From positions 1 through 64,000 of IMG/VR virus record IMGVR_UViG_3300028857_000005: a stretch of DNA of 64,000 nt. One strand, 5' to 3'. Positions 1 through 40,903 of the stretch are shown piece by piece. The stretch is from a virus (Duplodnaviria; Heunggongvirae; Uroviricota; Caudoviricetes). Positions within the stretch are counted from its first letter, which is position 1. Each line of letters starts with the position of its first letter. The position numbers were made by a program, and so were the translations under genes. The notes below the pieces were generated by a model. That model was not told where the DNA came from, made no database searches, and was given only the letters and a program-made list of their open reading frames with translations.

Positions 1-128
1 CGTCCGCAGGACTTCGCGGTCTACCGCACCATCGGTGCCGTGAGCATCACCCTCACCCTCAAGGCCCGTTCGCAGGAGGAGGCAGACAAGCAGGCCGACG
101 CTCTGCTGGTCAAGTAGTCCCAAGCATT

Positions 129-256
129 GGCACCCCTTCGGGGGTGCCTTTGCAGGGTCGGGCGAAGCCCGACCATCATACACCATAAACCAGTTTAAGT
201 CAAGGGCATATTTCTGCCAGTTTCGCTTGACCAGCCATGTCCAACCGTGCTACTCT
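129..256 (+). repeat. early intergenic cassette copy 1: hairpins ggcacccc-ttcg-ggggtgcc (129-148) and gggtcgggc-gaa-gcccgacc (155-174), ttaagtcaag box (194-203), -35 TTGACC (227-232), -10 TACTCT (251-256)
   Basis: Direct reading. One of 7 direct copies of a ~110-bp module. Sits between a stop codon and the aaggag RBS of the next gene. Confidence 0.7.
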
Positions 257-282
257 TTACCTAGTCAAACAAGGAGCACACA

Positions 283-585
283 ATGCACAAGCCCAGCACT
301 GATCGCAGCGGGATCAAGCAGACCATCAAGGCACTCAACGATGCCGGTTGGAAGCCCCTGTGGGTGCAGTACACTGGCGAGGATGAGATGGAACTCGTCA
401 ACTCTGTCACTGAGGCTCTTGAGGAAATCACGGCAGTGGATGACTGCTTCCTCATCGTGGAGAAGGATGGGGAGCGTGGCTGGGTCAGGTTCGTCATGGG
501 CAACGATCCTGATGAGGTTGTGTGCGACTACACGACCAAGCTGGACGATGCACTCGATCCCATGTTCGCAGTTTGGAACGCTTGA
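283..585 (+). CDS. hypothetical early protein (100 aa)
   Basis: ORF with RBS aaggag 7 nt upstream, preceded by cassette 1. Antisense ORFs 261..503 and 265..588 are treated as shadows. Confidence 0.7.
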   Translation: MHKPSTDRSGIKQTIKALNDAGWKPLWVQYTGEDEMELVNSVTEALEEITAVDDCFLIVEKDGERGWVRFVMGNDPDEVVCDYTTKLDDALDPMFAVWNA

Positions 586-589
586 CAAG

Positions 590-703
590 CAAGGCCCGCA
601 AGGGTCGGGCGAAGCCCGACCATTCTACATCACATTACACCTTAAGTCAAGTCCAAAAAATCCCCTGATATCGCTTGACAACTCATAGCAGAGCGAGTAG
701 AGT
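590..703 (+). repeat. early intergenic cassette copy 2: gggtcgggcgaagcccgacc 602-621, ttaagtcaag 641-650, -35 TTGACA 675-680, 17-nt spacer, -10 TAGAGT 698-703
   Basis: Direct reading. -35/-10 spacing matches sigma70/HrdB consensus. Confidence 0.7.
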
Positions 704-742
704 TCTTGTTGTCAGGGAAACTAACCAACCGAAAGGCATCCC

Positions 743-1186
743 ATGTCCGTCAAGGCAATCAACCTCCGCAACCGCTACCTCGGTCGCAACGTCTCTGTCT
801 ACAGCGTCGATGGCTTCTACGTGGGTGGAGGCATCCTGAGGACCACCAACGACCGCAAGGGCAAGACCATCATGCCGGGGAAGGACTACCGGTTCTCCAT
901 GTTCGCCACTGACAGCGTCGGATCGATCCGCATGAACGACATCGTCACCATCGCTCGCAAGCCTCGCGTCATCAAGCCCAAGGCTGTTGTCAAGCTGGCT
1001 TCCGAACTCACCACGGACGACATCGGCAAGCGGGTCTTCGTCACTCCCGGTGCCATCCTCGGCACCTTCAAGCCGTGGGAGGGAACCATCAAGCGCGAGG
1101 CCGGGTTCATCGCTCCCAGTCACTACGTCGGTTACTCCGCTGACGGCTTCCTGCTCGTCACGACCGACAAGGTCAAGTTCCTCTGA
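743..1186 (+). CDS. hypothetical early protein (147 aa)
   Basis: ORF with RBS gaaagg, downstream of cassette 2. Confidence 0.7.
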   Translation: MSVKAINLRNRYLGRNVSVYSVDGFYVGGGILRTTNDRKGKTIMPGKDYRFSMFATDSVGSIRMNDIVTIARKPRVIKPKAVVKLASELTTDDIGKRVFVTPGAILGTFKPWEGTIKREAGFIAPSHYVGYSADGFLLVTTDKVKFL

Positions 1187-1198
1187 CCAACAAGTCAA

Positions 1199-1336
1199 GG
1201 GCACCCTTCGGGGTGCCTTTGGCATGGGTCGGGCGAAGCCCGACCATCCTATCATGAATTATCCTTTAAGTCAAGCAGAAATTTCCCCTATTTTCGGGCT
1301 TCGCCCACTTGACACACGCCTAGGAACTGGTAAGCT
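1199..1336 (+). repeat. early intergenic cassette copy 3: hairpins 1199-1216 and 1226-1245, ttaagtcaag 1266-1275, -35 TTGACA 1309-1314, -10 TAAGCT 1331-1336
   Basis: Direct reading. Confidence 0.7.
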
Positions 1337-1342
1337 CTAGTC

Positions 1343-1480
1343 ATGAAGCAAACAGCAAACCTCAAGTGGTCCACCAAAGAACAGCATGAGCACAAGCGCT
1401 CCGTACTTCGTGCCGCTGGTCCCATGAAGCCCAAGGGTCAGTACGACCGTCACGACAAGTCTTGGAAGGATGAATACTGA
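1343..1480 (+). CDS. small basic protein (45 aa, MKQTANLKWSTKEQHEHKRSVLRAAGPMKPKGQYDRHDKSWKDEY)
   Basis: ATG 7 nt after -10. Its stop overlaps the next ATG (ATGA coupling). Below the 60-aa cutoff of the ORF track. Confidence 0.45.
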   Translation: MKQTANLKWSTKEQHEHKRSVLRAAGPMKPKGQYDRHDKSWKDEY

Positions 1481-1680
1481 TGGCTGCCGTTCTGGTCGAG
1501 GTCAGCATTAGCTGCAACCACTGGTGCATCTTCTGCGACATGGAAGCTTCCGTGTACAACTACTCCAACGGGCAGGAAATCATCGCCTGCTCCAACTGCA
1601 AGGATTACAAGGGCATCATCTCCCTTGACGAAGACCGAGAAGACCTCAGCGAAGACGACGAAGGGAGTGACGATGAGTGA
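1480..1680 (+). CDS. Cys-rich zinc-finger-like small protein with poly-acidic tail (66 aa)
   Basis: ORF track entry. CNHWCIFC...CSNC motif and a DEDREDLSEDDEGSDDE tail. Confidence 0.55.
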   Translation: MAAVLVEVSISCNHWCIFCDMEASVYNYSNGQEIIACSNCKDYKGIISLDEDREDLSEDDEGSDDE

Positions 1681-1685
1681 CCGCG

Positions 1686-1808
1686 CACCCCTTCGGGGGT
1701 CGGGCGAAGCCCGACCATGCTATCACACCTTTACTCATTAAGTCAAGACCAAATTTTCCGCAGTTTCTGGCTTCGCCGTATTGACACACACGCTCATACC
1801 TGATAGAT
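1686..1808 (+). repeat. early intergenic cassette copy 4: fused hairpins caccccttcgggggtcgggcgaagcccgacc 1686-1716, ttaagtcaag 1738-1747, -35 TTGACA ~1780-1785, -10 TAGATT ~1803-1808
   Basis: Direct reading. Confidence 0.7.
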
Positions 1809-1837
1809 TCGTACCAACGACAACGAAGGGCAACACA

Positions 1838-2488
1838 ATGGACGTTACCGTCACCAATCCCTACGGTTCATACCGCATGGTCCAACTCTCAGGCGTAGAG
1901 CTTGAGTTCGACCTCAGTGAGGTTCTGGACAACATGTCCGATGAGGCTCTGCTTGAGCAGGCCAAGGAGCGTGACCTGTACGTGTTCGAGGGTCAGGACG
2001 AGATGATTACCGCTCTCATCAACGATGACCAAGAGCGCAACATGCTCGAAGAGATGGACTTGGGTACCGTCATCGAAATCTTGGGCGAGGATGAAATCCT
2101 GACCGAGATGGACGACGACGATATTCTCAAGTACGCGCAGGAGAACAACATCGTCCCTGACGACATGTCCCTTGACGACGTGGCAACCACCGAACTCGTC
2201 AACGAACTCATGCAGCGCAACAAGTTGGACGCTCTGCTCGGTGAGATGGACAGTGAGATGATTCAGGCTCACTTGATCCACAAGCGCGGTGGGTTCACTC
2301 TTGAAGAGGTTCCCACCGAAGAGATGATTTCCTGCCTTGAGAATGAGCGGGGTGTCATCATCGGTGGATTCACCGTCACTGCGGGAGTTGCTCAGGCATT
2401 CCGTACCCTCGCTGAGTTCTGCCGTGTGATCGAGAACGGCAGCAAGGAAGGTCTGGAAGGAAAGAGGTTCATCCTCCCAACTGAGTGA
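1838..2488 (+). CDS. highly acidic early protein (about 217 aa from MDVTV; the ORF extends upstream to 1781 via TTG); candidate DNA-mimic / anti-restriction-like protein
   Basis: ORF track entry. The ATG is preceded by gaagggcaacacaATG. Extreme D/E content. Early-block position with its own promoter. Confidence 0.6.
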   Translation: MDVTVTNPYGSYRMVQLSGVELEFDLSEVLDNMSDEALLEQAKERDLYVFEGQDEMITALINDDQERNMLEEMDLGTVIEILGEDEILTEMDDDDILKYAQENNIVPDDMSLDDVATTELVNELMQRNKLDALLGEMDSEMIQAHLIHKRGGFTLEEVPTEEMISCLENERGVIIGGFTVTAGVAQAFRTLAEFCRVIENGSKEGLEGKRFILPTE

Positions 2489-2523
2489 TATACTCAAAAG
2501 TACTTACCCACAACTGAATAACG

Positions 2524-2681
2524 CGGTGGCCCCAGCGGTTGAATCCCGGTGGGGCTAACCTGCGTCTAGGGTCGGGCGAAGCCCGACCATTCTAACACAC
2601 ATTCGGGTTTAAGTCAAGGCCCAAAATCCCCCATTTTTCGTGCTTCGCCATCTTGACAACCACTGGCTTGAGGGTATAGGC
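2524..2681 (+). repeat. early intergenic cassette copy 5: imperfect hairpin 2530-2560, gggtcgggcgaagcccgacc 2569-2588, ttaagtcaag 2607-2616, -35 TTGACA 2653-2658, -10 TATAGG 2675-2680
   Basis: Direct reading. Confidence 0.65.
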
Positions 2682-2688
2682 TGGCGAC

Positions 2689-3393
2689 ATGCCACTAGAC
2701 CGAACGAACGACCGTAAGACTGCCAACCTCTCAACCAAGAATGGCCTGCAAAGCAAAATCAAGAATGCTTTCAGCCTGCCCGCTGGTAATGCATTCTCTT
2801 GCCCCGGTGCCACGTCATTTTGTCAGAAGATTTGCTATGCCGGTCAGCTTGAGAAAATGTACCCTAGTTTTCTCGCTCTGGCAATGCGCAACTGGGATAT
2901 CCTCAAGGATGCCAGTATTGATGTCATGTACGTGGAACTCACAAACATGATTGATGCATTCGAGGCAGAATGCGATAAGTGGAATGCGCCGAAGAAGTTC
3001 CGCATTCATGCTGACGGTGATTTCTTTAACATGTTCTATGTTGAGGCATGGTCTTGGGTTATTGCTGAGCACGAAAGCATTCAATTCTGGGCCTATACCC
3101 GTTCTGACTTTGCCGCCGATTTCCTGCACAAGGAAAACCTGCCTAACCTCGGACTTTACTTTAGCGGCGATCCCGTCAATGAGGCAATGGCGCACACAAT
3201 GGCGGATAAGGGTATTCGCGTTGCAATGGTAGCGAATACCTTTGATGACGCTAAGGCTGCATTCAAGGGTGCGCGTTGTCCCGAGCAAAACAAAGCCATT
3301 CCGCTTATCTCGGATAAGGGTGGCGCGTGCGTTGCTTGTGGCCTTTGCGTAATGGGACGCGCTAATGTCCTTTTCTCTGTGAGCAAGAAATGA
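2689..3393 (+). CDS. Cys-rich protein (234 aa), possibly gp88-family-like; function unknown
   Basis: ORF track entry. Motifs SCPGATSFCQKICYA and CPEQNK...GGACVACGLC. Family assignment is from memory only. Confidence 0.55.
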   Translation: MPLDRTNDRKTANLSTKNGLQSKIKNAFSLPAGNAFSCPGATSFCQKICYAGQLEKMYPSFLALAMRNWDILKDASIDVMYVELTNMIDAFEAECDKWNAPKKFRIHADGDFFNMFYVEAWSWVIAEHESIQFWAYTRSDFAADFLHKENLPNLGLYFSGDPVNEAMAHTMADKGIRVAMVANTFDDAKAAFKGARCPEQNKAIPLISDKGGACVACGLCVMGRANVLFSVSKK

Positions 3394-3500
3394 GTTGGCA
3401 GGAGGTCGTAATGTTTGTCATTCTTGTGTTGAATAGCATTCAGCTAAGGATACAGACAATGCGAATCCAACAATTGGAGCACCATCAAAACAAATAGGCT

Positions 3501-3627
3501 TCGGCCCCCTTCGGGGGTCGGGCGAAGCCCGACCATCCTACCACACTCTAGCCTTTAAGTCAAGCCCAAAAATCCCCTGTTTTCAGCCTTCGCCCTACTT
3601 GACAAACTAGCTAGGCAGGAGTAAGGT
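3501..3627 (+). repeat. early intergenic cassette copy 6: hairpins 3501-3520 and 3515-3534, ttaagtcaag 3553-3562, -35 TTGACA 3599-3604, 17-nt spacer, -10 TAAGGT 3622-3627
   Basis: Direct reading. Confidence 0.7.
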
Positions 3628-3661
3628 TACTCTTGTAATCAACCACAACGAAAGGCTTGAA

Positions 3662-4723
3662 ATGCGCGGCTACTGGAATCGTCTCGATCAGTTCGATCAC
3701 ACCCTCGCTGACCGTACCCCCGGCTCTTACAACGCTTACGCGAGCGCTGCCTCCCTGCGTGTCCCGCTCTACGGTGGTCTGGGCACTGTCGTGGACGAAG
3801 ATGTCTCGAAGGACACGGGCGCGATGCTCAAGGCTTCTGGTCTCGACTGGAATGTCCGCCTCGAAGAGGCAAACCTGCACGCTGGCTCTGACAAAAAGTG
3901 GTACGAGGTCATTCGTGACGGCTTCGGTGAGGCTGCCGATCAGGAGTGGGTCTTGGGCATGGTTGGCGGGCAGTACAAGGAACTGCAAAACCGCGACCTC
4001 TTCGACTTCGCTGATGGCCTTGTGCATGGTGGAGGCTACTGGGATGTTGCTGGTCAGTTCAACTACGGGCGCACGGTCTTCGGTGTCCTCAAGTTCGACC
4101 GCTCCCTCTTCATCGACCCCAACGGTGCCAACGATGAGATTGAGGACTCGATCATCGTCTCCACGTCTCACAACGGCTCAACCGCTATCGTGGCAGCGAA
4201 CACGGCAATGCGTCTGCGTTGCATGAACGCTCTGACCTCCTCGCTCAAGAACGCCAAGCGCGTTTTCAAGATTCGTCACACGACGAACCTCGCTGACAAG
4301 ATGACCGTTGCGCGTGAGGCTCTGAACCTCAACCGGCTCTACATGGATGAGTTCTCGAAGATGGCTAACGAAATGATCCAGCTTGAACTCACCAAGAACG
4401 CCGTCAACGAGATTTTCGAAACGCTCAACCCTGAGCCTGAGGCGAATACCCGTGGCGCACTGACCAAGTGGGAGACCAAGCGCGATCAGTTCCACGGCAT
4501 CTACAACGGTGCTACCCTCGAAAACCTCGACGGTGACAACGCTTGGAAGGTCTTCAATGCTCTGACCGAGCAGAAGGACTGGTTTGCCGCTCCTCGCAAG
4601 GGAACCGCTGAGCGTGTCATGGCTTCCGGCTCTGGCTTCATCGAAGCGGACAACGACGCTAAGGACAAGATGCGCGAGGTCTGCATGGCAGTTGCCAACG
4701 CTCACCGTCTGGTCCGCGTCTGA
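3662..4723 (+). CDS. hypothetical protein (353 aa), possibly DUF932-like phage/plasmid family
   Basis: ORF track entry with RBS gaaagg. Long antisense ORFs 3611..4171 and 4178..4705 are treated as shadows. Confidence 0.6.
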   Translation: MRGYWNRLDQFDHTLADRTPGSYNAYASAASLRVPLYGGLGTVVDEDVSKDTGAMLKASGLDWNVRLEEANLHAGSDKKWYEVIRDGFGEAADQEWVLGMVGGQYKELQNRDLFDFADGLVHGGGYWDVAGQFNYGRTVFGVLKFDRSLFIDPNGANDEIEDSIIVSTSHNGSTAIVAANTAMRLRCMNALTSSLKNAKRVFKIRHTTNLADKMTVAREALNLNRLYMDEFSKMANEMIQLELTKNAVNEIFETLNPEPEANTRGALTKWETKRDQFHGIYNGATLENLDGDNAWKVFNALTEQKDWFAAPRKGTAERVMASGSGFIEADNDAKDKMREVCMAVANAHRLVRV

Positions 4724-4733
4724 CAGTTAGTCA

Positions 4734-4753
4734 TGGGGGGAGGGAGACCTCCC
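4734..4753 (+). terminator. hairpin ggggggaggg-agac-ctccccc followed by TTT
   Basis: Inverted repeat directly after the stop codon of 3662..4723. Confidence 0.5.
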
Positions 4754-4756
4754 CCT

Positions 4757-4785
4757 TTGACATTCCTGTCTAGATCGGATAGAAT
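4757..4785 (+). promoter_or_regulatory. near-consensus promoter: -35 TTGACA (4757-4762), 17-nt spacer, -10 TAGAAT (4780-4785)
   Basis: Direct reading. Sits 6 nt upstream of ATG 4792. It lacks the reiterated cassette. Confidence 0.6.
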
Positions 4786-4791
4786 GCAAAC

Positions 4792-4965
4792 ATGAAGTCA
4801 TACACCGAAAAGCTGGCAATGAAGATCATTGCGCTATTCGACGTTGCTTCTCTTGACCATGACGACATTTCAAGGGTAGCTAGTTGGGTAAGGAATAGCG
4901 CCAATGTTGTTGTACTGGCAAAGATAGTCCACTTCTGCGAAAGGTTTCTCCATGACGATTTCTGA
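4792..4965 (+). CDS. small hypothetical protein (57 aa, MKSYTEKLAMKIIALFDVASLDHDDISRVASWVRNSANVVVLAKIVHFCERFLHDDF)
   Basis: ATG right after the promoter. Its 3' end overlaps the start of 4952..5299. Confidence 0.45.
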   Translation: MKSYTEKLAMKIIALFDVASLDHDDISRVASWVRNSANVVVLAKIVHFCERFLHDDF

Positions 4966-5299
4966 ACAGCGATTCCACTGCGTTTGTGGCAAAACGTGGA
5001 CGGGTCTCAAGATGGAGCATTGCAAGGGCTGTCATGAGACATTCAATAACACAAAGGCAGGCGATATGCATACGGCAGTCGCCTATCTCTACACGCTTAT
5101 GCGTGACCCATTCCAAGGCATTGTTCAGATTCTCCCTGCTGACGTTGCCTTTGCTCTAGGTGGGGGATGCAAGATCATTTCGGAAAACAATGAGCAGCGG
5201 TATTGTTTGACTGCCGCCGAAATGACGGCAAAGGGAATGCGGCAGGAAAAGAATGAGGCATGGAATATGGGAGGATGTGCATACATTCCGAAGGGCTAG
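4952..5299 (+). CDS. zinc-finger protein (115 aa; CVCGKTW...HCKGCH)
   Basis: ORF track entry, overlapping the previous small gene. Confidence 0.55.
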   Translation: MTISEQRFHCVCGKTWTGLKMEHCKGCHETFNNTKAGDMHTAVAYLYTLMRDPFQGIVQILPADVAFALGGGCKIISENNEQRYCLTAAEMTAKGMRQEKNEAWNMGGCAYIPKG

Positions 5300-5332
5300 G
5301 GCTTGACAACGCTTAGCTGGGCATGATACAAT

Positions 5333-5446
5333 GCCCCGCTTCGCGGGGTCGGGCGTAGCCCGACCATCCTACCACACATATCCGTTTAAGTCAACCCTAT
5401 ATTTCTGCCGGTATGGCTTGACAGACTACGCCCGACCGTATAAGCT
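5333..5446 (+). repeat. early intergenic cassette copy 7: hairpin ccccgc-ttcg-cgggg, gggtcgggcgtagcccgacc 5346-5365 (loop variant gta), ttaagtcaac 5384-5393, -35 TTGACA 5418-5423, -10 TAAGCT 5441-5446
   Basis: Direct reading. Confidence 0.65.
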
Positions 5447-5476
5447 TTAGCTAGGCAATCAACCAAGGAGACAACA

Positions 5477-5652
5477 TGACCACCGTGTTCACCGGACTTC
5501 ACACCACCGTCCTCATGTCGGCAGACGGCATGACCTTCACCGTCAAGCATGGTCCCAAGAAGGCCCATCGCAAGACCTTCAAGGGTGAGTCCGCTTGGTC
5601 CGCTGTCAACCGCTTCTGCTGGGATGCAGGCGACTTGACATGCAACGTGTGA
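5477..5652 (+). CDS. small hypothetical protein (58 aa, MTTVFTGLHTTVLMSADGMTFTVKHGPKKAHRKTFKGESAWSAVNRFCWDAGDLTCNV)
   Basis: ATG with RBS aaggag, downstream of cassette 7. Confidence 0.5.
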
Positions 5653-5669
5653 GGGTGTAGTCTTTAGTC

Positions 5670-5858
5670 ATGGAACTCACACAGGCAGAGAAAGACCTCA
5701 TCTTCACGATCTTCTTCTCACACGTTTCTGTCAACAGCGTGTGCGAGGTTGAGGTTCGCAGCATCGTTGACAAGTTCAAGGCAGACGGGGCAATCGCTCG
5801 TAACGTCAGCTTCCACAAGAATGTCCACGGACATATCCAAATCGATTTCTTCAACTGA
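5670..5858 (+). CDS. small hypothetical protein (62 aa)
   Basis: ORF track entry, same orientation as the early block. Confidence 0.4.
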   Translation: MELTQAEKDLIFTIFFSHVSVNSVCEVEVRSIVDKFKADGAIARNVSFHKNVHGHIQIDFFN

Positions 5859-5869
5859 GAGGCCACACC

Positions 5870-5998
5870 ATGATCACGCTCTACCTGTCCAACGCTGAGG
5901 CTGCTGCACTGCTGGCTTCCATTCCCGTTGGTGCTGTCGATGTCATGGCAGACCTCAAGGAATCCCTGACCTTCCGACTCGCTGCGGCGAAGTAAGGA
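5870..5998 (+). CDS. small Ala-rich hypothetical protein (42 aa, MITLYLSNAEAAALLASIPVGAVDVMADLKESLTFRLAAAK)
   Basis: ATG after gagaggccacacc. Followed by a terminator hairpin. Confidence 0.3.
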
Positions 5999-6007
5999 CC
6001 AAGTAAG

Positions 6008-6046
6008 CCCCTTCGGGGGCTTGCAAGGTCGGGCTTCGCCCGACCC
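6008..6046 (+). terminator. block-terminal hairpins gccccttcgggggc plus ggtcgggc-ttc-gcccgacc (inverted version of the cassette hairpin)
   Basis: Direct reading. Last element before the AT-rich region. Confidence 0.6.
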
Positions 6047-6059
6047 CCACAATTACTTG

Positions 6060-6640
6060 CTTTAAGAAGCTTCGAATAAATCCGCAGATGTTGAGACCCA
6101 AACAATTCATCATTCGCAACAAAAGCTGTTTTAAGAAGGCGAGATGTTTTCCTAGGATTTTTGAGCACTCATGCTGTTGCTAACCCATGTTAGCTTTAAG
6201 TGCCAATAATTCATCATTTGGGTGTTTTACGCTGTTTCTGTGCAAAACGGGGTAGATTTGTAGACAAATTGACATAGTTTGGGTCAGTTATCATGAAAAA
6301 CAAGTTAATTTCTGAGGGCCAAGGCTGATATTTGGCTGTCCAAGGATGATTCTCAGTGCTTTCAGGTGTTCCTGCTGTGTTCATGGCTCTAATCTAGCAC
6401 GTTCTAAGCCTCTTGTCAACTGTGACAAGGGGTTTTGCTGTGTTCTGAGGAAGATTAAGCATATGATTATGGATGGTATATGATCCATATACTCAGCACA
6501 AATACCTATGGCTTGTCAGTTTATTGACAAATCGATGATTCTATATGTGAAGTCACAAGCCTTAAATCTTAGATATTAAGTCATTTGGCTTAAGGCTCAT
6601 GCTTCATCCATAGATTTTTCAGTCCTTCAACCGTGCTCCG
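6060..6640. other. about 580-bp AT-rich non-coding region between convergent gene blocks. Contains palindromes cttgtca-actg-tgacaag (6412-6429) and ttgtca-gtttat-tgacaa (6513-6530), and gacaaattgaca (6263-6274)
   Basis: Sharp GC drop and no credible ORF. The only + ORFs are short and antisense to the DUF3310 gene. Confidence 0.6.
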
Positions 6641-6767
6641 CTACATCTACTTAGTTTGTCACTTAAGTCTTCCACCTTCTGTACCGCTGGGTGTTGGTCA
6701 TTGGACTGTACCCATACATCAAGTACATATACCAATAGGTCTAGCTCTTGTTCTGATAGCTTGTCGC

Positions 6768-7223
6768 TCATCCGACTACCCCCGGCAAAACGGGATGTGG
6801 TTCAACAGCATAAGGATTCATCGATACCGCTGGCACAGCAGGTTCCAGTACGTCAACGGAGTCAATACCCATGATGTCGGCATACCAATCCTTGATGACC
6901 AGCATTGCCTTGTCGTAGTATCCTTCATAGATGAACTCAATGGCCCACTTACGATACCCCTCGGGTTCCTCAGCGTCCCACATTGCATATGCTACCTTGC
7001 TTGCAAAGGGGTTGGCTTCCCAATTGTATTGTAGCTGTGCCTCCATGGAATGCTTTGTGTACCACATTGCCTTGGCTAGCTCTTGCAGGTCTGAGTCCTT
7101 CATGCCCAAGCGCCAAAGGTACTTGATGGCATTGCCTGCCCCATAGAATAGCGGATAGATGACTTGAATGCACTCAATGCCGCTGGGATGATTCTTGTAG
7201 TGTTCTGGGTTCTCTGCACCCAT
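6768..7223 (-). CDS. DUF3310-like phage protein (151 aa)
   Basis: ORF with RBS ggagg. Motif HPSGIECIQVI...GNAIKYLWR resembles the DUF3310 family (recalled from memory). Confidence 0.6.
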   Translation of the reverse strand: MGAENPEHYKNHPSGIECIQVIYPLFYGAGNAIKYLWRLGMKDSDLQELAKAMWYTKHSMEAQLQYNWEANPFASKVAYAMWDAEEPEGYRKWAIEFIYEGYYDKAMLVIKDWYADIMGIDSVDVLEPAVPAVSMNPYAVEPHPVLPGVVG

Positions 7224-7313
7224 GCTGTACCTCCGAAATGATAGTTAAGTCTTTTGCCTAAACCCAAAAATGAAAATCGAGTCTATTTACATCTTGGCAA
7301 ACGAAAGATGGTT

Positions 7314-7532
7314 CTATTTTTTGCCTAGCTCTTTGAAGAACGCCAACAGGATCACGTAGTTCCTCATGATGTCCATGTATTGTTTTCTGCCGATGTAGTA
7401 GCAGTAGCTTGTAGCTGCTACCCCAAACGCTACCGCCCAAGGTCTCAGATCAATGATTGCTTCGATGGACAGGGCAGCGTTGGCACCACCGATCAGGGTG
7501 GTGAAGATCAGGTCACGGAGCTTTGTTTCCAT
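7314..7532 (-). CDS. small membrane protein (start probably METKLRD; ORF extends to 7565)
   Basis: Hydrophobic ORF in the co-directional gene chain. Confidence 0.4.
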   Translation of the reverse strand: METKLRDLIFTTLIGGANAALSIEAIIDLRPWAVAFGVAATSYCYYIGRKQYMDIMRNYVILLAFFKELGKK

Positions 7533-7728
7533 GTTCCAACTTCCAGACACTGTACATCGTGCCAACGATCAAACCAGCACCGATGGAGCCGATGATGTTG
7601 AGCAGTAGTCCAAGGAAGAGTAGCTGAGTATCAGCCATGACGCTCATTCCAAGGATCGAGATTGCAACTGCGCCAACAAGGGCGACAGCCATCTTAAAGT
7701 ACTTCATTCTTTCTCTCTTCCAGTTCAT
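7513..7728 (-). CDS. small membrane protein (71 aa)
   Basis: Two predicted TM segments. Co-directional chain. Confidence 0.45.
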   Translation of the reverse strand: MNWKRERMKYFKMAVALVGAVAISILGMSVMADTQLLFLGLLLNIIGSIGAGLIVGTMYSVWKLEHGNKAP

Positions 7729-7933
7729 TGATCATGGTGGTGATTTCCTTATACCGGCGAATAATCACCATCACGATCCATGCAAGGATCACCAATGACA
7801 GGATAGCATCAATGTAATCCGCTTTAATCAATGCCTTGAATCCTGCATCCCACCATGTACCTGACCATGCAGACAGGAGGATGACGACGTAGACCTTGTT
7901 GATCAGTTTGTTCTTCATCGTCCACGGTTCCAA
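7694..7933 (-). CDS. membrane protein (79 aa)
   Basis: Hydrophobic ORF. Confidence 0.45.
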   Translation of the reverse strand: MEPWTMKNKLINKVYVVILLSAWSGTWWDAGFKALIKADYIDAILSLVILAWIVMVIIRRYKEITTMINELEERKNEVL

Positions 7934-8211
7934 TCATTGAGAGAGTACTGGTAGTAACCATCGTAGCGGTGAGCGTCCATCCATTTGTTGATCAGAATGT
8001 TAAGGTTGCCGCTGTACTTTCCGAGGGTATCTGAGTTCTCATAGTACAACTTAAGGCCAATCATGCAGCTAACCCAGTCGTACCAGCCGCCACTGTAGTT
8101 GATCGCTGGGATGTTGAGGAACCACCATCCGTCACGCTTCTGAATGCTTGGCTTCCTCATCGGTTGTACAACCAAGCAAGGAACTGTTCGGTGCAAGTCG
8201 GGCACAGCCAA
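7915..8211 (-). CDS. hypothetical protein (up to 98 aa)
   Basis: ORF track entry, W/Y-rich. True start uncertain. Confidence 0.4.
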   Translation of the reverse strand: MAVPDLHRTVPCLVVQPMRKPSIQKRDGWWFLNIPAINYSGGWYDWVSCMIGLKLYYENSDTLGKYSGNLNILINKWMDAHRYDGYYQYSLNDWNRGR

Positions 8212-8363
8212 ATCTTGTCAACGAATCCTTCACCCATGTACCCGTAAGGCACGCTGGTCTTCACCTTGAGAGTGGCATTGATGTCACCGTAGTTGAAATC
8301 AACAATGGCCCTGTCCACCTTGCAGTGGTCACAGATGGTGACGATGGTTGTCGTGGTTGCCAT
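8157..8363 (-). CDS. zinc-ribbon protein (68 aa; CDHC...CPTC)
   Basis: ORF with RBS aggag. Confidence 0.5.
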   Translation of the reverse strand: MATTTTIVTICDHCKVDRAIVDFNYGDINATLKVKTSVPYGYMGEGFVDKIWLCPTCTEQFLAWLYNR

Positions 8364-8371
8364 GCTAGCTC

Positions 8372-8545
8372 CTATTTGTCGGTCTTGTAGAATCCGTTAC
8401 CCTTGAAGTGTGTGGGGGTGGGAGTGAAGACCTTCTTCATGCCGCCGCCACACTTTGGGCATGTCTTCATGCTAGCATCATGGAAGCCGTGTGTCAACTC
8501 CGTGTAGGATTTGCACTGTAGGCACTTGTAATCATACTTGGGCAC
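8372..8545 (-). CDS. FmdB-family-like zinc-ribbon protein (57 aa, GTG start; PKYDYKCLQC...CPKCGGG)
   Basis: GTG directly after the TGA of the upstream thioredoxin gene. CxxC...CPxCG pattern. Confidence 0.4.
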   Translation of the reverse strand: MPKYDYKCLQCKSYTELTHGFHDASMKTCPKCGGGMKKVFTPTPTHFKGNGFYKTDK

Positions 8546-8803
8546 TCATGCACCTTCGTACAACTTGATCAGGTTGGGACGTGTCATTGCTCCGACTACC
8601 CTGCGCATTTCAGTTCCCATCTCATCGAACATAATGAAGGTAGGTGTACTCATGACACTAAAACCATCTGCTACGTCGGGGAATTTAAAGATATCGACTG
8701 ACTGAACGCTATACCCGCGCTCTTCGACCAACCTGTCCAGCGTTGGCTTGACCATCTTGCATGGCGCACATGTGGGGCTTGTGAACATTACAAGCTTCTT
8801 CAT
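8546..8803 (-). CDS. thioredoxin/glutaredoxin-like redox protein (85 aa, CAPC active site)
   Basis: ORF track entry. FTSPTCAPCK motif. Confidence 0.7.
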   Translation of the reverse strand: MKKLVMFTSPTCAPCKMVKPTLDRLVEERGYSVQSVDIFKFPDVADGFSVMSTPTFIMFDEMGTEMRRVVGAMTRPNLIKLYEGA

Positions 8804-9003
8804 TTAATCTCCAATTGGTTCGATGCTGTCCAGCTTCCACATGTCTTCGATGAAACGGTCTTCGTCAAGATAAACGCTCTCGTTCTCTTGTTCCGTCAAC
8901 TGCCATGCTTTGGCCTTCTCCCACGCCTCCTGTGCTGATTCGGCGCGAATCATAAGGTTAGCACATACCTGCGTCGAAACGCCAATGATGAACTGTTGGG
9001 TCA
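8804..9003 (-). CDS. hypothetical protein (start MTQQFII with RBS aggagg; ORF extends to 9064)
   Basis: An internal ATG with a strong SD is preferred. Confidence 0.45.
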
Positions 9004-9068
9004 TCCAAACCTCCTGTATAGTTCTGCTAGAACGAGCACAGCAACGATAGGGACCATGCCCCAAAGGG

Positions 9069-9572
9069 TCATTGATCCCATATCGTCACCGGAGCCACGT
9101 CATTGATGTAGGCAACCGTGAGCGTTTCGCTCTTTGCGTACTCCGTGATTTCTGCAATGTCTTGTGGATACAGGGTAGGGTTGAAACTACCCATATTCCA
9201 CCATTCAGCAAGGTTGATCGTCAAGCGCATGGCATGACGCCTGTGCTTGTCTGTGTCCGCCAATACAAAGTGACGGATGGTCCTTCTGTATGTGCGGATC
9301 AGTTCATTTTGGTCTGGTTCCATACCCGCGAACCAACCAGCATAGTCATCATGTACCCACTTGATAGGAGAGTAAAGTGCTTCCATAGCCTGCGGAACGC
9401 CTTTACCCACCTGTTGTACGAAGTTGGAGATGTGGAGCGTCACAACGTCAGACTTGCCAACGATAGATTGACCAGTCTTTGCTGTCGTGTCAACGATGTA
9501 CTCATCGAAGTCACTGTCAGCGTGTGCGAATCCGTACAGCCTAGAGCCTGTTATCGTTTTCAGAATCAACAT
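9069..9572 (-). CDS. nucleotidyltransferase-fold protein (minimal NTase motif GSRLYGFAHADSDFD)
   Basis: ORF track entry. GS-x9-DxD matches the Pol-beta superfamily signature. Confidence 0.5.
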   Translation of the reverse strand: MLILKTITGSRLYGFAHADSDFDEYIVDTTAKTGQSIVGKSDVVTLHISNFVQQVGKGVPQAMEALYSPIKWVHDDYAGWFAGMEPDQNELIRTYRRTIRHFVLADTDKHRRHAMRLTINLAEWWNMGSFNPTLYPQDIAEITEYAKSETLTVAYINDVAPVTIWDQ

Positions 9573-9704
9573 ATGCGGTTACCTTATCTATGTGCCATCC
9601 TTCTAGGATGAGGTCAAGAGCTTCTTCGGCAAAGAACTCCAAGTCCATTGTCGTAAATCCATCTCCCTGAGGGCAAGACCATTTGATTACAACTGATACA
9701 TCCA

Positions 9705-9917
9705 TTAGCTTTCCTTTTCATTCGTGTGCCAGAGGAATCCATCAACTGTCATCCTTGCACTACCGCCCTCAATAGCAAGCAGGTAAATACTGAATGCCAC
9801 TGACTCAGAGTATCCCTTGTAGAGGAATCCATTATTGGATGTAACTTCACAGTACGGACCAAACATTAGTCTTCCCATCCCGGCACGATTGTAGTTGGAA
9901 TGCCTTCTTCTGCCCAC
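9705..9917 (-). CDS. hypothetical protein (70 aa)
   Basis: ORF track entry in the chain. Weak. Confidence 0.35.
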   Translation of the reverse strand: MGRRRHSNYNRAGMGRLMFGPYCEVTSNNGFLYKGYSESVAFSIYLLAIEGGSARMTVDGFLWHTNEKES

Positions 9918-40449: not shown

Positions 40450-40535
40450 GTGGACCATGCGGGAGTCGAACCCGCGTCCAAATATGTTCCAGCTAAACAG
40501 TTATACGGCCATTGTAATACGGGGTAGCTTCCGCC
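40450..40535 (-). tRNA. tRNA-like (T-arm GCGGG/TTCGACT/CCCGC); acceptor partner not found
   Basis: T-arm only. Confidence 0.3.
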
Positions 40536-40903
40536 ACACTCCACCAGTCCATTTAGGTTGGACAACCTTTTACTGCACCTTAGACATTTGATTGACTAGG
40601 GCTGCCTTTACCCTTGGCTTGTCAGACGAGCGCTAGCTGGTCCGCACCGGAGAGTACTGACTCAATGAATGCGTCAACACCCTTCATAGCCTCTGTTACC
40701 TCATCGGTAGCATTTATTTGTTTGACCACTTTATAGAATGTGATCCGTTTCTGGCCGCTATTTAGATTTTCCATACCTGTCAAAACCGGGATGGCCCATT
40801 ATCGCATGTGGGGTACTGCTAGGCAATCCCACATACTTGTCACAGGGTATACCTACGCCCATTAAACACCCTAGCGCAATTCGTAGCGTAATCCTGCCGA
40901 CCG

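Follow-up and report, generated by a model that had tools for sequence, protein, structure and literature searches.

Which task falls to an intergenic sequence that a phage repeats, with little change, between one small gene and the next? The question is raised by the left end of a stretch of 64,000 nucleotides (nt) from the IMG/VR record IMGVR_UViG_3300028857_000005, hereafter the window, where an array of putative early genes is punctuated by a cassette, or module, that combines two hairpins (A and B) with a promoter directed into the following gene. Judging from its sequence, the window comes from an uncultured, distant relative of the Stanwilliamsviridae siphoviruses, the ~131-kb Streptomyces phages of cluster BE. 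An earlier note on this DNA had read the module as a terminator followed by a single forward promoter, accompanied by several conserved boxes that might bind a phage regulator or act as an UP element. The comparative analysis presented here assigns boxes of this kind to a second predicted promoter, which lies on the opposite strand. With this reverse promoter included, the cassette is probably a composite transcription punctuation unit for the early-gene array of a lytic BE-like actinophage.

The modules form one family of seven direct copies, placed by a repeat search at 155, 602, 1226, 1697, 2569, 3515 and 5346. The 20-mer GGGTCGGGCGAAGCCCGACC is exact in six of them, shows one loop mismatch (GTA) in the copy at 5346 and recurs in inverted orientation at 6027-6046; it was found nowhere else in the 64 kb, and 0 matches are expected in shuffled sequences. 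The seven direct copies and the inverted terminal hairpin therefore lie exactly where the earlier note had placed them, and outside the array the sole repeats of the window are derived from transfer RNA (tRNA) genes. On the gene strand, each module runs from hairpin A to hairpin B, then through ATnnTA, about 14 variable nt, TTAAGTCAAG and an A/T tract, in some copies through GCTTCGCC, and finally to TTGACA, 16-18 nt and TAnnnT. The box TTAAGTCAAG follows hairpin B in all seven copies, copy 7 reading TTAAGTCAAC. Two other boxes are less uniform than had been proposed. On the one hand, GCTTCGCC, attributed to each copy, occurs only in copies 3-6 (as GCCTTCGCC in copy 6) and is missing from copies 1, 2 and 7. 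On the other hand, AAAATCCCC is exact in copies 2, 5 and 6, the remaining copies carrying A/T-rich variants of it. The module contains two -35 hexamers set back to back, separated by either 23-24 or 34-35 nt; these two spacing classes differ by about one helical turn, and the geometry leaves ~95-106 bp between the predicted start sites.

The second of these hexamers belongs to the opposite strand. Beside hairpin B, that strand reads an A/T tract, cTTGACTtaa, 17 nt, (TGn)TAnnAT and then directly GGTCGGGC, one arm of the hairpin. Such a segment is predicted to be a near-consensus extended -10 promoter aimed back into the preceding gene, and its -10 hexamer touches hairpin B with zero gap in every module. 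The boxes of the earlier note can be remapped onto it: TTTAAGTCAAG is the reverse -35, the reverse -10 and its TGn correspond to CTA-CACAC and the AT before it, and AAAATCCCC is the A/T tract immediately upstream of the reverse -35. Rather than accessory sites of a one-way promoter, these extra boxes are thus better explained as the TTGACT, TGn and TAnnnT of a second, opposite-strand promoter. A blind scan of both strands for consensus promoters called a minus-strand promoter in 7/7 modules, with TGn in 5/7, the forward promoters of only two of the seven modules passing the same threshold. The predicted reverse start, the 7th base after the reverse -10, falls inside the 5′ arm of hairpin B; it was placed by applying the 6-nt distance that separates the -10 from the ATG in the leaderless genes described below.

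The comparison with related phages rests on 24 distinct segments anchored on hairpin B, collected from the window and from eight related contigs, of which four (L064, L104, L108 and L116) were retrieved via the hairpin and four (L204-L207) independently via homologues of the DUF932 gene, at 65-72% identity. Twenty of the segments, from the window and from relatives of 65-100% protein identity, are counted as internal modules; the leftmost copy (U1) and three terminal copies stand outside this count. The reverse element has the features of sigma70/HrdB-type promoters (TTGACN, a 16-18-nt spacer, TAnnnT, an optional TGn and a variable spacer sequence) in 20/20 internal modules: TTGACT is present in 19 of the 20, the 17-nt spacer in 18, TGn in 16 and TAnnnT in all. 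Information content is high at the positions of the reverse-promoter boxes and low in the spacer. Between orthologous modules of relatives at 65-73% identity, boxes and spacing are kept and the spacer has diverged, only 5/14 positions matching between module 5 and its L104 orthologue. Where the reverse hexamer does change between orthologues, the change stays within the allowed pattern (TAGAAT/TAAAAT, TAGGAT/TAGGGT, TAGGAT/TAAAAT). The copies are therefore conserved in related genomes; their absence or lack of conservation there, which would have spoken against the earlier description, was looked for and is not what the relatives display.

Background was assessed by counting TTGACN-16/18-TAnnnT sites across the whole window and in shuffled versions of it. 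The window contains 56 such sites vs. 5.8 +/- 2.4 in the shuffles, a ~10-fold excess. Outside the array, 39/39 sites are in the sense of the genes and 0 are antisense, the tRNA region included, which suggests that much of the phage is read by unmodified host polymerase. The seven reverse sites of the array are the only antisense sites in the window, and also the only ones with TTGACT. The three controls of conservation, background and phyletic contrast indicate, at the level of sequence, that the reverse element is more than a resemblance. The copies outside the internal set behave differently: U1 has TACAAT with a degenerate reverse -35 and faces a divergent minus-strand gene, and the three terminal copies, from the window and its relatives, have a promoter on neither side. 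U1 alone, at the left edge of the array, might serve the divergent gene. The idea that the reverse promoters jointly drive the minus-strand genes left of the array was rejected, as plus-strand genes intervene. Likewise rejected as genes were the minus-strand open reading frames (ORFs) beginning MVGLRPT... and MIGWSGFARP..., which translate hairpin B in the backward direction: they vary in length, are unconserved and have an ATG situated upstream of the predicted start.

The two hairpins of the module have contrasting modes of conservation. Hairpin A varies in sequence and length with its pairing kept, and most copies carry an extra-stable C(UUCG)G loop, in the sense orientation only; it appears to behave like an ordinary RNA terminator stem. 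Hairpin B is a palindrome with 8-bp arms, GGTCGGGC-G(A/T)A-GCCCGACC, whose sole variable position is the central base of the loop (GAA or GTA). The two 8-nt arms do not differ between any of the copies, even in relatives that were found without the hairpin, and zero compensatory changes were seen. RNA folding recovers tandem hairpins at every site, as had been described, and their folds are stable, with z-scores down to -7.4. Hairpin B is followed by AUCAUA, AUUCUA and similar sequences, and UUUG follows hairpin A only in modules 1 and 3. The hairpins are putative terminators, and it is plausible that the modules insulate the array transcriptionally. The orientation of the loop (GAA vs. TTC) had been entertained as a sign that hairpin B acts at the RNA level; this was dropped, since the terminal copy is direct in L204 and L205 and flipped in the window and L207.

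A further feature ties hairpin B to the downstream half of the module. The box GCTTCGCC, here called mini-B, has the sequence (G)GGCTTCGCC(C) and so matches the central part of hairpin B in reverse complement. The distance between the centres of B and mini-B is 65-66 bp in modules of the long class and 71-73 bp in module 7 and in the upstream copy U3, where mini-B sits within the forward spacer; the distance from mini-B to the forward -35 is variable. The central base of mini-B tracks the loop of its own hairpin B: GAA goes with CTTCG and GTA with CTACG (window, L204, L207), and the L206 orthologue of module 7 pairs GAA with CTTCG. When read-through sense RNA is folded to minimum energy, mini-B pairs with the 5′ half of B in modules 3 and 7, at modest z-scores of -1.1 to -3.1. 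This covariation may reflect pairing in RNA or single-stranded DNA, or template-switch correction between inverted repeats, and it probably goes back to one evolutionary event.

The forward half of the module conforms to the earlier description: host sigma70/HrdB-type promoters and 3′ hairpins are borne out at both the sequence and the comparative level, and the listed hexamers and spacers hold, to which TTGACC-18-TACTCT in copy 1 and TTGACA-18-TAGGCT in copy 5 can be added. A/T tracts precede the forward promoter in all seven modules. In all, 10 forward promoters, with hairpins at the ends of the units, are distributed among ~12 genes within 6 kb, three of these promoters (at 4757, 5303 and 5635) lying outside the modules. 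The promoter at 5303-5332 on the plus strand and the reverse promoter at 5394-5366 on the minus strand face each other over hairpin B, with predicted starts ~20 nt apart, an arrangement kept in L204-L207; for an operator, this would be a natural position relative to promoter 5303. In several places the ATG stands exactly 6 nt past the -10, both in the array (1343, 2689, 4792, 5670) and on the minus strand further along the window (6384, 8497, 21728, 34166, 40338, 44370). The same gap is seen at the upstream copies U2 and U3 and in L104 and L206. Leaderless messenger RNAs (mRNAs) are therefore predicted, which fits an actinobacterial host. As for the genes themselves, a block of ~12 small and mostly ORFan genes encoding, among others, acidic (isoelectric point, pI, 4.05), zinc-finger and Cys-rich proteins was confirmed. 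Searches of Pfam and PHROGs gave family matches in the block only for GP88, DUF932 and an FDXHR zinc domain; apart from the zinc-finger domain, they gave no DNA-binding annotation, and neither a repressor nor an integrase was seen within the block. The coordinates of modules, promoters and adjacent features are collected in Table 1.

Table 1. Modules, predicted promoters and other features of the array and of compared phages. Positions are those of the window unless a relative is named; promoters are given as -35 / spacer (nt) / -10; aa, amino acids; GC, fraction of G+C.
Feature	Position	Strand	Content
Module 1	129..256	+	hairpin A 129-148 (GGCACCCC-UUCG-GGGGUGCC), hairpin B 155-174; TTGACC 227-232 / 18 / TACTCT 251-256; gene 283-585
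Module 2	594..703	+	weak hairpin A, hairpin B 602-621; TTGACA 675-680 / 17 / TAGAGT 698-703; gene 743-1186
Module 3	1194..1336	+	hairpin A 1194-1223, hairpin B 1226-1245, mini-B GGGCTTCGCCC 1296-1306; TTGACA 1309-1314 / 16 / TAAGCT 1331-1336
Module 3 output	ATG 1343	+	predicted leaderless; genes 1343-1480 and 1480-1680
Module 4	1688..1809	+	short hairpin A (CCC-UUCG-GGG) abutting hairpin B 1697-1716; mini-B 1769-1777; TTGACA 1781-1786 / 17 / TAGATT 1804-1809; acidic gene 1838-2488
Module 5	2521..2682	+	long hairpin A 2521-2565, hairpin B 2569-2588, mini-B 2641-2649; TTGACA 2653-2658 / 18 / TAGGCT 2677-2682
Module 5 output	ATG 2689	+	predicted leaderless; GP88-family gene 2689-3393
Module 6	3497..3627	+	small hairpins 3497-3518, hairpin B 3515-3534, mini-B 3586-3596; TTGACA 3599-3604 / 17 / TAAGGT 3622-3627; DUF932 gene 3662-4723
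Module 7	5334..5446	+	hairpin A′ ~5334-5346, hairpin B with GTA loop 5346-5365; TTGACA 5418-5423 / 17 / TAAGCT 5441-5446; gene 5476-5652
Module 7 spacer	5426-5437	+	CTACGCCCGACC, reverse complement of 5′ arm plus loop of module 7 hairpin B
Terminal hairpin pair	6003..6046	.	hairpin A 6003-6024 and hairpin B 6027-6046 with flipped loop (TTC); promoter on neither side
Reverse promoter 1	175..203	-	TTGACT (203-198) / 17 / TATGAT (180-175), abutting hairpin B
Reverse promoter 2	622..650	-	TTGACT / 17 / TAGAAT
Reverse promoter 3	1246..1274	-	TTGACT / 17 / TGa-TAGGAT
Reverse promoter 4	1717..1746	-	TTGACT / 18 / TGa-TAGCAT
Reverse promoter 5	2589..2617	-	TTGACT / 17 / TGt-TAGAAT; L104 orthologue TAAAAT, spacer diverged
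Reverse promoter 6	3535..3563	-	TTGACT / 17 / TGg-TAGGAT; TAGGGT in L204, L206 and L207 orthologues
Reverse promoter 7	5366..5394	-	TTGACT / 17 / TGg-TAGGAT; opposite promoter 5303-5332 across hairpin B
Compact terminator-promoter	4735..4785	+	hairpin 4735-4754; TTGACA 4757-4762 / 17 / TAGAAT 4780-4785; without hairpin B or reverse promoter; kept in L204, L206, L207
Compact unit output	ATG 4792	+	predicted leaderless; genes 4792-4965 and 4952-5299
Extra promoter	5303..5332	+	TTGACA / 18 / TACAAT, directed into module 7 hairpins; kept in L204, L205, L206, L207
Promoter in end of gene 5476-5652	5635..5663	+	TTGACA / 17 / TAGTCT; predicted leaderless ATG 5670; genes 5670-5858 and 5870-5995
CxxC protein	1480-1680	+	array gene
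FDXHR zinc protein	4952-5299	+	array gene
Non-coding stretch	6047..6620	.	GC 0.44; between array and convergent minus-strand genes; TTTAAGAAG at 6060 and 6129; TTTAAGTG at 6196; inverted repeats
Minus-strand promoter and ORF	6214..6419	-	TTGACA (6419-6414) / 17 / TAGATT (6396-6391); 6 nt to ATG 6384; predicted leaderless 56-aa ORF 6384-6214
Distant box sites	L002 15966-16040; L003 1900-1970, 5030-5060; L004 6031-6160; L005 6138-6260		
BE cassette regions	L209 (LilMartin) 1144-9753; L001 (StarPlatinum) 1300-9750		

If the cassette is a composite punctuation unit of this kind, host HrdB-type RNA polymerase would bind both promoters, and each gene of the array would lie between convergent promoters. 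The forward promoter would start the next early gene or genes, often as leaderless mRNA, and the reverse promoter would most likely act as an insulator or attenuator by opposing sense transcription. Polymerase sitting at the reverse promoter, or leaving it, would cover hairpins A and B and collide head-on with sense polymerases just as the hairpins emerge, the collision supplying the pause that otherwise comes from a U-tract and so enforcing termination. A short antisense RNA over the 3′ end would limit the output of the early gene, and on DNA that has just been injected, divergent firing may provide the forward promoter with negative supercoiling. The invariant hairpin B, which occupies +1 to +20 of the reverse promoter, could in addition be an operator for that promoter and for promoter 5303, a role compatible with insulation, and the cassettes could double as homology patches for gene exchange among related phages. 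There is precedent for a divergent promoter that serves as an insulator (bioRxiv 10.1101/2024.03.27.586983), and antisense promoters and antisense RNAs of phages have been mapped experimentally (PMC10914365). A more elaborate version, in which a phage or host factor gates the reverse promoter via hairpin B (and mini-B) and thereby makes the array shut itself off through collision termination and antisense silencing, strikes us as distinctly doubtful.

Several observations weigh against a punctuation unit with an active reverse promoter. A U-tract follows neither hairpin and a terminator scan was blank at the modules, so that the canonical features of an intrinsic terminator are lacking; hairpin-only termination, discussed for actinobacteria, may operate instead. 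The conserved, strong forward promoter that lies ~10 nt upstream of the module 7 hairpins would be an odd neighbour for an efficient terminator B. For the presumed antisense transcript, neither a consistent terminator nor a conserved product was found: a hairpin with a U-tract, such as would define a short antisense RNA with its own terminator, does not occur consistently downstream of the reverse promoter, a U-rich tail being present in module 6 only. BE phages have analogous cassettes without any reverse promoter, and more distant IMG/VR relatives (L002-L005), whose DUF932 protein is ~44% identical and whose GC content is 0.40, have cassettes of their own that also lack one. These distant relatives contain repeats of the form ACATTAAGAAGGC...AAAAAATC(C/G)C upstream of TATAAT-type promoters, which resemble the TTAAG...AAAATCCC part of the module. 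A bipartite TTAAG(N8-10)AAAA(A)TC(C/G)C thus stands upstream of forward promoters where there is no reverse promoter; TTAAG persists in U1 despite the loss of the reverse -35 there; and in the window as well as in L204/L207, the terminal non-coding region, although promoter-less, has TTAAGAAG boxes again. A different and older function may accordingly reside in part of the reverse -35 box.

The last three of these points are also what speaks for the one-way terminator-promoter of the earlier note, in which TTTAAGTCAAG, CTA-CACAC, AAAATCCCC and GCTTCGCC would be regulator sites or an UP element, the likeness to a reverse promoter would be incidental and no reverse transcription would take place. 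The A/T tracts, which lie at UP-element distances, agree with it as well. Nevertheless, this explanation appears quite improbable, as it leaves unaccounted for the invariant TAxxxT 17 nt from TTGACT, the TGn of 16/20 modules and the diverging spacer between them, together with the fact that these are the sole antisense sites when 39/39 sites elsewhere are in the sense direction. Moreover, at about -60 to -110 of the forward promoter, the boxes are far away for an UP element or for a class I/II activator. A rival that could coexist with a real reverse promoter concerns hairpin B, which may be a duplex operator, with 8-bp half-sites one helical turn apart, for a lineage-specific dimeric phage protein that represses promoters and/or blocks polymerase. 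The arms of B are identical everywhere, L204-L207 included, whereas hairpin A varies freely; B covers ~+1 to +20 of the reverse promoter and ~+7 to +27 of promoter 5303, the classic position of an operator; and the cassettes of BE phages hold, at the same place, another palindrome conserved within each genome, the pattern expected of co-evolving operator/protein pairs. As an RNA hairpin, the palindrome of the BE phage LilMartin, GTCCG-N3-CGGAC, would be poor, and the pattern in BE phages suits a lineage-specific protein site no less than an RNA hairpin. Some relatives have the terminal copy with its loop flipped, so that orientation would be non-critical there. Stoperators provide a precedent (PMC9283540), and B could act in the manner of these sites or of the conserved inverted repeats of phiC31. 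On the opposite side, the annotations of the block (Pfam, PHROGs) include no candidate repressor, the zinc-finger domain aside, and the 19-mer of hairpin B is a generically favoured hairpin that forms the tip of unrelated palindromes in many bacterial metagenome-assembled genomes (MAGs). The GNA triloop of d(GCGNAGC) hairpins is stable. Both the GAA and the GTA loop fit such a triloop, which points to a single-stranded hairpin, and covariation of the loop with mini-B would be unexpected for a protein site. All in all, we regard the operator as possible, if somewhat unlikely.

Two other explanations would move the emphasis away from transcription. The cassette could be conserved mainly for recombination, its copies being portable linkers comparable to the PeSL elements of T4-type phages that swap self-expressing ORFan cassettes, in which case homogenisation and selection for exchangeability would have shaped the uniform boxes no less than regulation. 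For PeSLs, such a mechanism has been documented (PMC2839356, PMC4122927), the genes of the block are mostly ORFans, and three observations, detailed below, can be cited: the replacement of the acidic gene by a 31%-identical allele between flanks of 98-99.9% identity, both alleles coexisting; the lack of the acidic gene and of module 4 in L104, where another small gene is found; and the low GC content and mycobacteriophage best matches of the GP88 gene. However, homogenisation within a genome fails to explain identical boxes with a free spacer across genomes of 65-73% identity, and the right breakpoint of the swap is inside the gene rather than in a cassette; recombination as the main reason for conservation is hence unlikely in our view. 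It is also conceivable that the module is mainly a structured single-stranded element, involved in RNA processing or stability or in single-stranded DNA priming or recombination, the two -35 boxes as well as B and mini-B being arms of one large imperfect palindrome and the reverse promoter a by-product of its symmetry. Indeed, TTAAGTCAAG and CTTGACA are mutually complementary, mini-B exactly matches the middle of B in reverse complement, at a distance fixed to 65-66 bp or 71-73 bp, its central base covaries with the B loop, including a switch between orthologues, and the folds of modules 3 and 7 pair the two. Yet those folds have only modest z-scores, the pairings would cross in long-class modules, and the covariation probably stems from one event for which template-switch correction is an alternative. 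In addition, the best-conserved positions, those of the reverse -10 and TGn, are without a symmetric partner, and Rfam has no match in positions 1-7000 even at a permissive threshold. We consider this last explanation very improbable, and the composite punctuation unit with its reverse promoter is the reading retained in the comparisons that follow.

The cassette has parallels in several known systems. The PeSL elements of T4-type phages (PMC2839356, PMC4122927) likewise repeat a unit of ~100 bp between genes, in which a GC stem-loop accompanies a strong early promoter of the sigma70 type and the A/T-rich region upstream of it; they too flank small ORFan genes in a plastic region, relatives differing by replacements or insertions/deletions beside the cassettes. 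In contrast to PeSLs, the module described here has no sequence or phyletic kinship with them and belongs to a siphovirus lineage of actinophages, not to T4-like myoviruses; its stem-loops always precede the promoter and are paired, one of them being invariant; and its second promoter points backwards. The cassette would thus work in a PeSL-like manner without being a member of the PeSL family. The earlier note had also likened the array to the host-takeover modules of SPO1 and T5, and the likeness is reasonable, since homologues of the DUF932/DUF945 and GP88 genes lie inside the terminal repeat of BE phages and hence occur twice per record. SPO1 (24 genes in a 13.2-kb redundancy; PMC10531801) and T5 (PMC13250531) share with the array densely packed small early genes, the use of host polymerase and many promoters. 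No gene of the array is, however, homologous to SPO1 or T5 takeover genes, and the cassettes, although they would work similarly, do not belong to these modules. We know of no description of an antisense promoter in each unit of the SPO1 or T5 modules. The terminal repeat of BE phages was itself likened to T5 and SPO1 in the genome paper of BE1, which reports 20-25 ORFs of unknown function in the repeat and does not mention promoters or repeats (PMC5764925).

Within cluster BE, StarPlatinum (NC_048721) and LilMartin (MT684590) have cassettes built on comparable lines, in which a GC hairpin of variable sequence (often CCCTTCGGGG) is followed by a palindrome that is uniform within each genome, an A-tract and a promoter with a -10 of TAGACT, and these are found in the same gene neighbourhood, between ~20-25 small genes. 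They differ from the module in that there is no DNA similarity between them, their -35 is weak and their second palindrome is GTCCG-N3-CGGAC in LilMartin or GCCGCCCCGGC in StarPlatinum. No antisense promoter-like site was found in the cassettes of either phage, even with a relaxed -35. In the Streptomyces phage phiC31, Ingham et al. in 1994 reportedly described conserved, palindromic inverted repeats, a short site in many identical intergenic copies, in the vicinity of early promoters and terminators. Single antisense or back-to-back promoter arrangements are exemplified by lambda oop, P22 sar and phi29 A2c/A3. The stoperators of cluster A mycobacteriophages (PMC9283540) are also numerous, identical, short and intergenic, and in principle able to stop polymerases; unlike the 19-bp palindrome of this apparently lytic BE-like phage, they are asymmetric sites of 13-14 bp, bound by a monomeric immunity repressor in temperate phages. 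The conserved early-region antisense promoter of Phikmvvirus and the antisense RNAs of PAK_P3 (PMC10914365) oppose neighbouring genes as well, and are used, or have been proposed, to curb read-through or early expression. There, one or a few sites occur per genome, whereas here the site is a reiterated part of every array cassette.

In the literature searched, we found no description of an antisense promoter reiterated in every cassette of an early array, nor of the cassette grammar of the ~11-kb repeat of the BE family. A regulatory grammar of this kind emerges from the present analysis for one uncultured lineage and, more roughly, for BE phages. Its elements are a variable hairpin, a second palindrome that each genome keeps constant, and a promoter, to which the uncultured lineage unusually adds, in every unit, a strong predicted antisense promoter fused to the putative terminator. 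Should the reverse promoter be active, the array would lend itself naturally to testing whether roadblocks or collisions assist termination at hairpins that lack a U-tract; it could inform how lytic phages turn off toxic early genes, and could provide compact bidirectional parts for synthetic biology in Streptomyces. The self-limiting array considered above, a modular device for early-gene shut-off and insulation, would, if true, be undescribed in phages.

The genes between the cassettes show traces of exchange. The acidic protein of the window has 216 aa, a pI of 4.05 and 51 D+E residues. In L064 (207-782) and L213 (2725-3300), which are 98-99.9% identical to the window on both flanks of the acidic gene, its place is taken by an allele of 191 aa, just as acidic and with 31% identity. 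On the left, the swap breaks at the start codon just past module 4, and on the right ~10 codons before the stop; only the left breakpoint coincides with a cassette. Both alleles occur in related samples. They could represent the diversifying exchange of a DNA-mimic or anti-defence-type protein, and the cassette-bounded swap suggests a site at which genes of this type are exchanged. In L104, which is 73% identical, the acidic gene and module 4 are missing and a different small gene is present instead. The GP88 gene has a GC content of 0.49 vs. 0.54-0.60 for its neighbours, and its best matches (58%) are in cluster A mycobacteriophages, not in Streptomyces phages, which suggests that it was acquired horizontally into the array.

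The kinship of the window with cluster BE is apparent from several genes. The DnaE region is ~75% identical at the DNA level to that of Streptomyces cluster BE phages, and the DUF932/DUF945 protein (3662-4723) has 38% identity to the product of gene 2 of StarPlatinum and its relatives. Gene 2 of StarPlatinum lies inside a direct terminal repeat of ~11 kb and is hence present twice per BE record; homologues of the GP88-family gene (2689-3393) are likewise present twice per record in Streptomyces phages, in the BE terminal repeat. The block therefore has genes in common with this repeat, synteny being the sole evidence for a terminal-repeat placement in the window, and the orientation of the array relative to the neighbouring genes is unlike that in BE phages. 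The first gene past the array, which encodes a DUF3310-like protein of 151 aa, was considered for locating a repeat boundary by synteny and was uninformative, its matches being scattered over unrelated phages. Among 50,697 phage records, megablast with positions 1-8000 found no near-identical relative of the window, and blastn with one module found no DNA match in sequenced phages; exact hairpin B and a hairpin-plus-10 pattern were both absent from IMG/VR. The phage is present, at 99.3% identity, in many metagenome samples, in contigs that break at the modules, as is expected of repeats; the source metagenomes are JGI Ga0302261/62, Ga0302292 and Ga0311365/66, and SRR26192775. The array is interrupted by the edge of the window: contigs of 99.3% identity have an additional module ~500 nt upstream of the window start, and L108 and L116 have four upstream copies (U1-U4), so that at least four more copies precede the window. 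The full array would therefore comprise 11 direct copies and the terminal one, over ~8.2 kb.

The 19-mer of hairpin B was rejected as a marker of relatives or of the host, as it matches >118 metagenome contigs and 80 genome contigs, where unrelated palindromic repeats carry it at their tip (in Solirubrobacteraceae, Anaerolineae and further MAGs). In these contigs it forms the apex of longer, multi-copy palindromes that resemble repetitive extragenic palindromes or miniature inverted-repeat transposable elements (REP/MITE-like), with flanks unrelated to the phage module; examples are a Solirubrobacteraceae MAG (L133, L135, L137, L140, L171, L185, L198, L202) and Anaerolineae MAGs (L132, L138, L144, L150, L152, L168).

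Immediately beyond the array, the non-coding stretch 6047-6620 contains a 32-nt inverted repeat (6096-6127 / 6192-6223) and TTGTCGATAAAT-like repeats, and has counterparts in L204 (2630-2950) and L207 (3010-3290). It might be an origin, a packaging region or a repeat boundary. The minus-strand ORF 6384-6214 within it runs towards the terminal hairpins and is weakly conserved in relatives, at 45-56 aa. Further into the window, whose overall GC content is ~0.50, the minus strand carries 29 tRNA genes and a transfer-messenger RNA (tmRNA) between 21295 and 44596. For the tmRNA, at 40450-40797, ARAGORN predicts an unusually long tag peptide, ATDEVTEAMKGVDAFIESVLSGADQLALV.

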